Shown in pieces: positions 11,113 through 61,390 of a stretch of DNA of 64,000 bases. The DNA is from an uncultured Methylomirabilota bacterium (GTDB taxonomy: Bacteria; Methylomirabilota; Methylomirabilia; Methylomirabilales; 2-02-FULL-66-22): the NCBI GenBank assembly GCA_963714585.1, contig CAVQPC010000044.1, positions 20,250 through 84,249 on the forward strand. The letters are read 5' to 3'. The notes below the pieces were generated by a model. That model worked only from the letters and a program-made list of their open reading frames with translations, made no database searches and was not told the DNA's origin. A program made the translations under genes and the position numbers. Numbering within the stretch: position 1 is the first letter of the stretch; each line of letters starts with the position of its first letter.

Positions 11113-12129
11113 TTACAGCCGTCGGCCGGCCGCCTGGACGAACGGGGCGATCTCCTGCATCAACTGCTGGAACATGGCGGGCTTCAGCGATTGGATGCCG
11201 TCGCTCACGGCCATTTCGGGGCGGACGTGGACCTCGACCATGAGGCCGTCGGCGCCGCAGGCGATCCCGGCCTTGGCCATGGGGATCACGTAATCCCAGT
11301 GGCCGGTCCCATGGCTGGGGTCCACGATCACCGGAAGGTGGCTGAGCTTCTTGATAACCGGAACAGCATTCAGGTCCAAGGTGAAGCGGGTCGCCGTTTC
11401 GAAGGTCCGGATGCCCCGCTCGCACAGGACGACGTTGTAGTTCCCCTCTGAGAGGATGTACTCGGCCGCCATCAGGAACTCCTGAATGGTCGAGGCCATG
11501 CCCCGCTTCAAGAGCACCGGCTTCCCCGTCTCTCCCACGCGCTTCAGCAGGGCGAAGTTCTGCATGTTGCGGGCGCCGACCTGGAGCATGTCGGCGGTCT
11601 CGGCCACGAGGTCCACGTCCTCCGGCTTCAAGACCTCCGTGACGATCGGAAGCCCCGTCTCGTCACGGGCGGCGGCCAGAAGCCGCAGGCCCTCCTCGCC
11701 CAAGCCCTGAAACGCATAGGGGGAGGTGCGGGGTTTGAACGCCCCGCCCCGCAGCATGCTGGCCCCCGCCTCCTTCACGAACTTGGCGGTTTCCTGGAGT
11801 TGGCCGTGGTTCTCCACGGTGCAGGGGCCCGCCATGATGACGACGCGCTCGCCGCCGATCTCCACATCCCGAACTCTGACCAGCGTGGGGGCGGGTTTGA
11901 ACTCACGGCTGGCCAGCTTGAAGGGCTGGAGGATGGGGACGACGCTCTCGACGCCCGGCATGACCTCGAGGGACTGGAGGCGGGCCTTGCCGCGCTCATC
12001 CCCCACGGCGCCGATCACCGTGCGCTGCTTGCCCCAGATCACGTGAGACTGATAGCCGAGCTCCTCCACGGTCCGGATGACATCGTGCACCTGTTCTTTC
12101 GGAGCGGTCCCCTTCATAACGATGATCAT
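11113..12129 (-). CDS. aroF: 3-deoxy-7-phosphoheptulonate (DAHP) synthase, class I-beta with N-terminal regulatory (ACT/FL-like) domain
   Basis: [33 protein letters not shown]...[51 protein letters not shown]...[38 protein letters not shown]...[10 protein letters not shown]. The start is taken at the internal ATG 12129 of ORF 11113..12387. Confidence 0.92.
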
Positions 12130-12171
12130 GTTCTCCCTCCATGGGCAGCAACCGGCCACGGGCCGCCGTGA

Positions 12172-12216
12172 TCCGAAAAACAAAAGGGCCACGAGGCATC
12201 GTCTGCCCCGTGGCCC
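12172..12216 (-). terminator. Intrinsic terminator (attenuator) in the aroF leader
   Basis: Minus-strand RNA reads GGGCCACGGGGCA-GACGA-UGCCUCGUGGCCC followed by UUUUGUUUUU. This is a ~13-bp GC-rich stem ending about 45 nt upstream of the aroF ATG. Confidence 0.7.
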
Positions 12217-12239
12217 TTGGTGACTGGATGCGCTGTGGT

Positions 12240-12326
12240 CTACGTCATCCGACGCCTCGAGCCGCCCGGGCAGACGCCCGTAAACCAAAAGTAAAGGGAA
12301 AAGCGGCTCGTCGAGGCGAAGGACAT
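12240..12326 (-). CDS. Candidate leader peptide [28 protein letters not shown] (28 aa; below the ORF-track cutoff)
   Basis: AGGAG lies 9 nt upstream of the ATG at 12326. Codons TTT TCC CTT TAC TTT TGG TTT give F-S-L-Y-F-W-F. The stop TAG is at 12242-12240. The ORF sits between a promoter-like site and the terminator above. Confidence 0.6.
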
Positions 12327-12358
12327 CGTCCGTGTCTCCTGTGTCCCGTGCGAGCCGT

Positions 12359-12387
12359 ATCATCCGGCTTCGGGACCGCGCTGTCAA
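12359..12387 (-). promoter_or_regulatory. Sigma70-like promoter TTGACA-17-GATGAT for the aroF leader
   Basis: On the minus strand, TTGACA is at 12387-12382, followed by a 17-nt spacer and GATGAT at 12364-12359. It lies about 30 nt upstream of the leader-peptide ATG. Confidence 0.4.
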
Positions 12388-12462
12388 GGATTTTTCCGTT
12401 TTGCATCGCCGGAAGATGATGTTAAGCTAACTCACTGATAGACAAGCCCCACGAGGTGCTTC

Positions 12463-24459: not shown

Positions 24460-25473
24460 ATGATCATCGTTCTCAAGCCAGGGGCCACCAAGAAGGACGC
24501 GGATGGCATTCTTCGACGGATCGCGACGCTGGGCCTGAAGCCTCTCTACATGCCCGGGACGGAGCGCATCGTCCTGGGGGCCATCGGCGACGAGCGCGTC
24601 CTGGGGAAGCTGCACATCGAGAACCATCCCCTCGTCGAGAAAATCTCCCCGGTCCTCACCCCGTACAAGCTGGTCAGCCGGGAGATCCATCCCAGGGATA
24701 CCATCGTCAAAATCGATGGCGTGCCCGTGGGCGGGAAGCACTTCACCGTGATTGCGGGCCCCTGTGCGGTGGAGGATCGCCGTCAGATGCTCCTCACGGC
24801 GCAGGCGGTGAAACGGGCGGGTGCCAGGTGTCTGCGGGGCGGCGCCTACAAGCCCCGGACGAGCCCATACAGCTTTCAGGGGTTGGGATTGGAAGGATTG
24901 CAGATCCTCCAGGAAGTCTCCCGGAAATTGAACATGCCGGCTGTGACGGAGGTCGTGGAGGTCAGCGACGTCGCCGCCGTCGAGCAGCATGCCGCCGCCT
25001 TCCAGGTGGGTGCACGCAACATGCAGAACTTCCGGCTCCTCAAGGCGCTGGGGCAGAGCCGGAAGCCCGTCATCCTGAAGCGGGGGATGGCGGCCTCGGT
25101 GGACGATCTCCTCCTCGCCGCCGAGTACATCCTCTCCGAGGGGAACCCCCACGTGATCCTGTGCGAGCGCGGCATCCGGACATTCGAGACCGCCACGCGC
25201 TACACGCTGGATCTGAACGCCATCCCGCACATCAAGCAGCACAGCCACCTGCCCGTCATCGTGGATCCGTCCCACGGGACGGGCGTGCGCGAGTACGTCA
25301 CGCCCATGGCCAGGGCCTCCGTCGCCTGCGGCGCCGACGGCCTCCTGGTGGAGGTCCACTACAACCCCAGGGAGGCCCTCTCCGATGGTCACCAGTCCCT
25401 CGACCCGAAAGGTTTCGCCTATCTCATGAAGACCATCCGCCCCTTCGTGGAAGCGGCAGGGCGGAGGATGTAG
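24460..25473 (+). CDS. aroF: DAHP synthase, class I-beta (second paralog)
   Basis: [33 protein letters not shown]...[50 protein letters not shown]...[38 protein letters not shown]...[10 protein letters not shown]. It is collinear with the 11113..12129 copy. Confidence 0.92.
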
Positions 25474-61295: not shown

Positions 61296-61390
61296 GGAGG
61301 CGGAGTGGGCCTGGTGGCCCTCCTGGTCTTCAAAACCAGCGTGGCGCCTAACCCGCGCTAGGTGGGTTCGATTCCCACACGCCTCCGCCA
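61296..61390 (+). tRNA. selC: tRNA-Sec (anticodon UCA)
   Basis: The 95-nt gene is GGAGGCGG AG TGGGCC-TGGT-GGCCC.. CTGGT-CTTCAAA-ACCAG [long variable arm TGGCGC-CTAACCC-GCGCTA] GTGGG-TTCGATT-CCCAC ACGCCTCC G CCA. It has a UCA anticodon, an extended D-stem with a 4-nt loop, a long extra arm and a 7(+1)/5 acceptor/T stack. Confidence 0.85.

Follow-up and report, generated by a model that had tools for sequence, protein, structure and literature searches.

We propose that the 5' leader of aroF, the gene for a 3-deoxy-D-arabinoheptulosonate 7-phosphate (DAHP) synthase at 12129-11113 on the minus strand of a 64,000-nucleotide stretch of DNA from an uncultured Methylomirabilota bacterium (the window, whose numbering is used throughout), serves as a ribosome-mediated leader-peptide attenuator of transcription and so controls this copy of the gene. 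Taking the sequences and the modelled folds of the window and its relatives together, we put the probability of this proposal at about 0.8. What is its basis? The parts of such a device are present and are conserved with the orthologous gene, the regulatory codons keep their aromatic class, and the terminator and an alternative pairing are both conserved and energetically competitive. In the order of transcription the parts are as follows.

12387 to 12359, minus strand: promoter-like site returned by a promoter scan, with -35 TTGACA (12387-12382), a 17-nt spacer and GATGAT (12364-12359).

12340 to 12336, minus strand: Shine-Dalgarno (SD) sequence AGGAG of the leader open reading frame (ORF), 9 nt before its ATG, by reading of the sequence.

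12326 to 12240, minus strand: leader ORF of 28 codons plus TAG (12242-12240), with its ATG at 12326, conserved in relatives.

12317 to 12303, minus strand: GCCUCGACGAGCCGC, a tentative candidate for segment 1 taken from folds, pairing with GCGGCUCGAGGC (12266-12255) in the ribosome-free leader.

12302 to 12282, minus strand: regulatory codon run F9-S-L-Y12-F13-W14-F15 (UUU UCC CUU UAC UUU UGG UUU), five of seven codons aromatic.

12279 to 12255, minus strand: putative segment 2, the 5' strands of the antiterminator, GGGCGUCUGCCC (including CGUCUGCCC, 12276-12268) plus GGCUC (12263-12259), from conservation and nascent folds.

12216 to 12200, minus strand: putative segment 3, made up of the terminator 5' arm GGGCCACGGGGCA and some of the loop, from composite pairing and fold energy.

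12218 to 12176, minus strand: intrinsic terminator, stem 12218-12184 and U-tract UUUUGUUUUU (12185-12176), from the fold and from pairing across the family.

12129 to 11113, minus strand: aroF, encoding a type I-beta DAHP synthase of 338 aa with an N-terminal ferredoxin-like domain, from Pfam and orthologues.

An earlier note, made from the letters of this DNA alone, had named most of these parts, and they lie where it placed them. Its TTGACA-17-GATGAT promoter-like site (12387-12359) is the sole sigma-70-like match in 4 kb, where 0.4 were expected; the AGGAG-preceded ORF of 28 codons at 12326-12240 was confirmed by direct reading; the run F-S-L-Y-F-W-F does pack Phe, Tyr and Trp codons into five of seven positions, an aromatic class that proved to be conserved; and the GC-rich hairpin of about 13 bp followed by a T-tract about 45 nt before aroF is a hairpin of 13-15 bp at 45 nt. 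A short ORF with its own SD sequence and start codon is present in the aroF leader here and is kept in relatives; the alignment consensus of 56 distinct sequences has a GGAG/GAGG block at the matching position. The 231-nt leader folds with a z-score of -4.66 against dinucleotide shuffles, and the combination of an aromatic short ORF (at least 4 aromatic codons in 7) with a terminator is found once on the two strands of the 64-kb window. Similarly, TTGAC[AG] and TG(G/A)TA are kept at a fixed distance in 55 of the 56 distinct relatives. The pattern of the promoter region in the family, cTTGAC(A/G)-N14-15-(A/G)TG(G/A)TAC(A/C)(C/A)AT (55/56 sequences), overlaps GATGAT; the promoter may resemble an extended -10 (TGnTAnnnn) more than the canonical TATAAT, with the true -10 lying 3-4 nt downstream of GATGAT.

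The relatives came from metagenomes scanned with the first 93 residues of AroF (80 loci, 71-87% identity), from a genome scan with full-length AroF (the close relative L001 and 79 loci of other phyla, among the matches listed) and from three individual protein look-ups. Leaders were extracted with the terminator arm as anchor; another anchor, GTCTGCCC, was rejected after it had matched, in several loci, an upstream iron-sulphur (Fe-S) gene with a C-x-R-V-C-P motif. A homologous leader is present in about 60 of the 66 loci having at least 250 nt of upstream sequence. From 56 distinct sequences, that of the window among them, we built a covariance model, R1 (alignment A1). It matches the window at 12176-12341 with 158.3 bits (E = 1e-34), as it must by construction for a training sequence, and no second copy was found in the window. 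Because the window sequence belongs to the training set, the real support for the family lies in 73 other loci: R1 matches upstream of orthologous aroF, at 57-170 bits, in 73 of 83 related Methylomirabilota (NC10) metagenome loci. Among the 80 cross-phylum loci listed, it matches in L001 only; the element is a lineage-specific one. Both the short ORF and its aromatic run are kept upstream of orthologous aroF in the relatives. The genes upstream of leader and aroF vary, and include an IF-2B/mtnA-like gene, a Band_7 gene, a gene with no Pfam hit and an Fe-S-type gene; since the leader stays with aroF despite these changing neighbours, it belongs to aroF.

Within the ORF, every one of the 56 distinct leaders has Phe codons, 55 have Tyr codons and 47 have Trp codons, in varying order. 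For example, the run is FSLYFWF in the window and YYFWFSF, FWFYFYF, WSFYFCF, FSFYFYF or WRFYF in relatives, while the flanking residues vary and the N-terminal codons drift freely. Across the leaders of the window, L001 and L081-L161, Phe codons are UUU in 157 cases and UUC in 12 (93% UUU); the window is GC-rich, and the corresponding counts for seven of its long genes are 9 and 86 (9.5% UUU). The preference for a rare, wobble-read codon in the sensor may tune stalling, or may prevent the run from folding. The 3' half of the ORF, in turn, is kept as nucleotides: frame-shifted variants (L094, L125, L131 and L140) read the same bases as ...ARGDG* and stop at the UGA inside GGAUGA. Retention of the bases despite the change of frame means that this part of the ORF is under constraint as RNA, which is what a segment 2 should show. 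The alignment thus points to selection on codon meaning in the run and on RNA sequence 3' of it, the pattern expected of a leader-peptide attenuator. Sensing of all three aromatic amino acids is plausible because Trp codons are so frequent, and what the leader reads is most likely the charging of tRNA-Phe, of tRNA-Tyr and, usually, of tRNA-Trp.

The terminator hairpin is GGGCCACGGGGCA-GACGA-UGCCUCGUGGCCC (12216-12186), with its core 5' arm at 12216-12204, its loop at 12203-12199 and its 3' arm at 12198-12186, and two further A-U pairs extend it to 12218-12184. The stem has 15 pairs, 10 of them G-C, and a 5-nt loop; the hairpin alone folds at -30.4 kcal/mol, and 45 nt separate the end of the U-tract from the aroF ATG (12129). 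Over the 56 sequences 99.3% of cells are paired, the basal pair shows a compensatory change from G-C to A-U in 7 sequences, and a canonical U-tract follows the hairpin in nearly all members. RNAalifold, run on the same 56 sequences, returned the terminator and a small helix, UGCC with GGCG. In a subgroup of relatives (L144, L146, L151, L153 and L155-L157) a second hairpin with a U-tract (AGCCACGG...CCGUGGCUUUUU) follows directly after the first terminator, about 95 to 10 nt before aroF, and has the CCACGG core of the first; the arrangement resembles a tandem terminator. A comparable hairpin, CACGG...CCGUG, is present in the window at about 12170-12153 and lacks a U-tract.

What would compete with the terminator? 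The earlier note had proposed that CGTCTGCCC (12276-12268) in the leader ORF pairs with GGGCAGACG (12208-12200) in the 5' arm and loop. The exact complementarity of the two is borne out and the pairing is conserved across the family, but as an account of the antiterminator the proposal was too small. Folding of nascent transcripts revealed that the first helix, CGUCUGCCC (12276-12268) with GGGCAGACG (12208-12200), is joined by a second, GGCUC (12263-12259) with GGGCC (12216-12212) at the base of the terminator 5' arm; since the second helix extends the first, almost the entire 5' arm would be sequestered. The block downstream of the aromatic run is conserved as ...GGGCGUCUGCCC-NNN-GGCUCGAGGCGNCGGAUGAGCUAG..., and GUCUGCCC is invariant or nearly so in 56/56 sequences. 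When every pair of alignment columns was scanned for stacked helices present in 88% or more of the 56 sequences, GUCUGCCC with GGGCAGAC, the pairing of the earlier note, was the only alternative helix family-wide, matches of 4-5 bp aside. In the composite antiterminator of 13 pairs, 96.8% of cells are paired; sliding the partner by 1-3 columns lowers this to 24-53%. The region 12276-12200 folds into the antiterminator at -42.9 kcal/mol versus -29.1 +/- 3.3 for shuffles. Likewise, when transcripts reaching to the terminator loop were folded with a ribosome footprint extending from 15 nt 5' to 10 nt 3' of the A-site codon, a ribosome at the first or second aromatic codon left both antiterminator helices in the minimum-energy fold of 54-55 of the 56 sequences, so the pairing is energetically relevant in the nascent RNA. 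In the divergent subgroup typified by L144, GGCC stands in place of GGCUC and still pairs with the GGCC of the 5' arm base; this is compensation at the level of the helix, a single anecdote rather than a statistic. Conservation and thermodynamics together incline us towards this specific pairing, with less assurance than we have in attenuation as such.

Two other pairings were considered and rejected as features of the family. One, GGCUCGAGGC (12263-12254) with the terminator 3' arm, has 10 bp and one bulge in the window; in most relatives the sequence there is GCCCCG or GCUCCG, giving an A.C mismatch (the judgement was made by eye on the alignments). The other, a GGAUG...CAUCC hairpin around the stop codon, occurs in many members and is absent in those of the L116, L121, L131 and L135 types.

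From these parts we infer a mechanism in which translation of the ORF, stalling within it, the relative timing of ribosome and polymerase, the amino acids that matter and a role for segment 1 would all take part. Transcription would begin a few bases past the promoter-like site (12387-12359), and a ribosome would translate the 28-codon leader while RNA polymerase proceeds. A shortage of charged tRNA-Phe, tRNA-Tyr or tRNA-Trp would make the ribosome stall early in F-S-L-Y-F-W-F (12302-12282), leaving segment 2 (GGGCGUCUGCCC...GGCUC, 12279-12259) uncovered and released from its upstream partner at 12317-12303. Segment 2 would then pair with the 5' arm and loop of the terminator (12216-12200) as they emerge, the terminator would be blocked, and polymerase would enter aroF. 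When aromatic aminoacyl-tRNAs are plentiful, the ribosome would pass over segment 2 to the UAG at 12242 and leave the 5' arm free; the -30 kcal/mol hairpin with its U-tract would form, and transcription would end at about 12176. The window's candidate for segment 1 is tentative: the region 12317-12251, with the segment 1:2 helix, folds at -32.3 kcal/mol, and a ribosome stalled in the aromatic run might cover at least part of segment 1. This type of segment 1 is restricted to a subgroup with 'SR' before the aromatic run; in another subgroup the helix forms between the codons UGGUUUAGCUUUCCGG and CGGAUGAGCUAGACC, around the stop codon.

Several results weigh against this account. In the modelled folds, a ribosome at the last aromatic codon (the last Phe) has a footprint that covers CGUCUGCCC, and the helix is lost in 54/56 sequences. 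The antiterminator forms in ribosome-free nascent transcripts of 51/56 sequences and persists in 3 of the 4 sequences that were folded with a ribosome at the stop codon; simple footprint modelling therefore fails to reproduce the OFF state. With the ribosome at the stop codon, GGCUC lies about 2 nt from the edge of the modelled footprint and is probably excluded sterically, and the OFF state probably requires either such steric exclusion or a translating ribosome physically on segment 2 while segments 3 and 4 are being synthesized. With the 3' arm complete, the terminator state is favoured by about 15 kcal/mol on average; because the terminator wins at equilibrium, the decision of the switch must be kinetic, as it likewise is in the trp (trpL) attenuator of Escherichia coli. 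A segment 1:2 helix common to the family was sought and rejected, as the all-column scan gave none and duplex energies computed sequence by sequence were no better than those of shuffles; the candidates are specific to subgroups. Covariation of the antiterminator is weak and by itself not significant, with 3 compensatory cells (U-A to C-G) and a score that 33-37 of 500 shuffles reach. It is weak because both strands are nearly invariant, and that near-invariance may reflect conservation for another reason. Finally, the leader is absent upstream of aroF in the close relatives L085, L106 and L164. In L085 and L106 aroF lies directly 3' of the Fe-S-type gene, L106 retaining the spacer that follows the terminator, and in L164 it comes after atpC; judging from these loci, the attenuator has been lost or replaced several times.

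Could the switch be set by something other than a ribosome? A terminator/antiterminator pair controlled by a ligand or a protein, in the manner of a riboswitch, TRAP or a T-box, with the short ORF incidental, would account for the 3' half of the ORF being kept as nucleotides rather than as peptide, and the antiterminator found in 51/56 ribosome-free folds would allow another factor to set the default. No T-box, riboswitch or leader family matches 12176-12390, however, in a scan against Rfam 15 at E up to 10, and no family of any kind does so at E = 0.1; at gathering score the window holds nothing of relevance, apart from a selenocysteine tRNA elsewhere in it, and 17 related loci match no Rfam leader, T-box or riboswitch family. 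The SD sequence, the start codon, the in-frame aromatic run and the stop codon are kept in essentially all members, yet the N-terminal codons drift, and the run is respelled and still consists of F, Y and W. The latter is selection on codon meaning, which a sensor made only of RNA does not explain, and the extreme preference for UUU suggests decoding rather than the binding of a ligand. We consider such a switch improbable.

Less probable still in our estimation would be either of two further arrangements, which we rate alike as very improbable. The leader might be an independent small gene of about 175 nt, encoding a functional 28-residue peptide or a small RNA, with a terminator that insulates an aroF served by its own promoter. 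It has a promoter-like site of its own and a strong terminator, and in L090, L110 and L120 the 200-380 nt between terminator and aroF leave room for a second promoter; in the window, however, there is no second promoter-like site in 12176-12129. The unit occurs once in the window, and wherever it is found it immediately precedes aroF, in the same orientation, however much the gene on its far side varies. Moreover, the peptide is not conserved, for N-termini are wholly different, frame-shifted C-termini are tolerated and the aromatic class alone is kept. Alternatively, translation of the leader, or stalling within it, might expose or hide the ribosome-binding site of aroF (12140-12133), whose SD region GGAGGGAGAA is paired with the pyrimidine-rich codons UUUUCCCUUUA in the minimum-energy fold of the full leader. 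This pairing relies on the UCC CUU of the window, and relatives have other codons there; it is absent among the family-wide helices, and we rejected it as a conserved feature. The canonical U-tract after the hairpin in nearly all members is the signature of transcription termination.

How does the proposed attenuator relate to known systems? The closest likeness is the aroR leader peptide of Corynebacterium glutamicum, reportedly the work of Neshat et al. in 2014. Later reports describe a Phe-Tyr-Phe leader peptide upstream of the aroF operon, with ribosome stalling that raises expression (PMC11802643, PMC7356990), and an experimental test of aroR-aroF in which Phe limitation alone took effect (PMC11802643). 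Both systems have a short leader ORF of aromatic codons directly upstream of a DAHP synthase gene, but the Methylomirabilota element, unlike that of the actinomycetote, has a longer run with five aromatic codons in seven, usually including Trp. The likeness is a functional analogy drawn from the papers. The C. glutamicum aroF enzyme is not known to be of the I-beta type with a ferredoxin-like domain. A second precedent is a computational prediction in Acholeplasma: uORFC-13-1, an upstream ORF (uORF) with promoter, ribosome-binding site, Phe codons and adjacent intrinsic terminator, lies exclusively upstream of the 3-deoxy-7-phosphoheptulonate synthase gene, aroF (PMC8632094). It shares with the window leader a uORF and an intrinsic terminator upstream of aroF; it differs in that its hosts are AT-rich Mollicutes and in that the uORF is a U-run with at least one Phe rather than a mixed F/Y/W run, and its RNA is, to judge by the description, unrelated. 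The pheL-pheA and trpL-trp systems of Enterobacteria sense a single amino acid and are found only on terminal-branch genes. The window leader shares their logic, with regulatory codons in a leader ORF, an antiterminator and a terminator that exclude each other, and a U-tract ahead of the structural gene; it departs from them in its place on the first common step of the pathway, in mixing three amino acids and in belonging to a different RNA family. The earlier note presented a leader on a DAHP synthase gene as a novelty, which was an overstatement, as aroR-aroF (PMC11802643, PMC7356990) and uORFC-13-1 (PMC8632094) precede it. The mechanism is of a known kind and has forerunners on a gene of this function; new here are the RNA family and the phylum, the targeting of an I-beta enzyme, a run that routinely mixes F, Y and W, and the marked preference for UUU. 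A search for literature on leader peptides of Methylomirabilis or Acidobacteria found nothing relevant.

Leaders of comparable design appear in other phyla. Among the matches listed, at least 11 of 19 loci labelled Acidobacteriota have an aromatic-rich short ORF and a terminator upstream of an I-beta DAHP synthase gene, with leader peptides such as MFFTYAGWFSFRFWRFTPSG and MSSARFNSFRFSYWWYFTV; a reverse-complement control for an aromatic ORF with a terminator gave 0 of 79 cross-phylum loci.

About 90-280 nt upstream of the start of the aroF match: Acidobacteriota leaders, in L043, L053, L057, L059, L063, L067, L068, L069, L075, L078 and L080.

These leaders share with those of Methylomirabilota the regulated gene family, an F/Y/W-rich leader peptide and a terminator after the leader, but their RNA is unrelated and has the textbook 2:3 / 3:4 design: GAGUGG(C) directly after the stop codon duplicates the terminator 3' arm (CCCACUC...GAGUGGG), and in L059 all three segments have changed together, to GAGCGG / CCGCUC / GAGCGGG. 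R1 scores them at chance level (14-15 bits, E 0.2-0.5), and the Acidobacteriota family is not in Rfam. Single loci labelled Chloroflexi (L055:2339-2474) and Ca. Aquilonibacter (L058:2318-2464) likewise combine an aromatic short ORF, encoding MHMKDAQTAGNGNYYWYMTGV and MTRFTSFTVQFRYWFSAV..., respectively, with a strong terminator hairpin. Side by side, the Acidobacteriota and Methylomirabilota leaders look like the recurrent evolution of the same solution. It is conceivable, and on balance we hold it slightly the less probable side of the question, that mixed F/Y/W leaders are a general and repeatedly evolved control of I-beta DAHP synthases in poorly studied soil and groundwater phyla (here Methylomirabilota and Acidobacteriota, with single candidates in Chloroflexota and Eremiobacterota), each a UUU-tuned OR gate with three inputs. 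If so, the gate would act at the first committed step of the shikimate pathway. No such mixed F/Y/W leader RNA family was found in Rfam, nor was any paper describing one.

The gene under proposed control and its surroundings can be described briefly. Its product matches DAHP_synth_1 (5e-82) and DAHP_snth_FXD (7.5e-22) in Pfam and is therefore of the I-beta type; the closest relatives of the protein, which number thousands in all, are 83-98% identical and carry the label candidate division NC10 or Candidatus Methylomirabilis in their sources. The leader lies in an intergenic spacer, 12130-12462, between divergent genes, the second of which is the following.

From 12463, plus strand: IF-2B-family gene of the methylthioribose-1-phosphate isomerase (mtnA-like) type.

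The aroF frame is open upstream across the entire leader, to the TTG at 12387 that belongs to the -35 hexamer, and mechanical ORF lists thus give a spurious ORF of 424 aa (11113-12387, minus strand); the homologues all begin MIIVMKG, at 12129. A tRNA-Arg (TCT) of 88 nt called by ARAGORN inside the aroF coding sequence (11624-11711, minus strand) is almost certainly a false positive, the Rfam tRNA model being silent there at gathering score. Far from aroF, at 61296-61390 on the plus strand, lies a selenocysteine tRNA gene (Rfam tRNA-Sec, 76.8 bits; ARAGORN tRNA-SeC, anticodon TCA), so that the source organism probably makes selenoproteins. A second DAHP synthase paralog at 24460-25473, 57% identical to the first copy, lies downstream of priA, from which a purine-rich spacer of 93 nt separates it. 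A short ORF and a terminator were sought in that spacer and neither was found, in agreement with the earlier note, which had held that this copy has no such leader.

Finally, what would the leader mean for these organisms? Its presence on one copy suggests a reason for having two I-beta DAHP synthases, in that one answers to aromatic tRNA charging and the other apparently does not. Leader-peptide attenuation is usually described for genes of terminal branches; here it would be placed at the common entry step of the pathway, with a mixed-codon sensor. For the NC10 bacteria, the nitrite-dependent methane oxidisers and their relatives, we know of no genetic system and of essentially no gene regulation that has been described. 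The R1 family and its parallel in Acidobacteriota could enter RNA family databases and so improve the annotation of metagenome-assembled genomes, and the leader offers a testable cis-regulatory element, a first regulatory handle on amino acid biosynthesis in Methylomirabilota.

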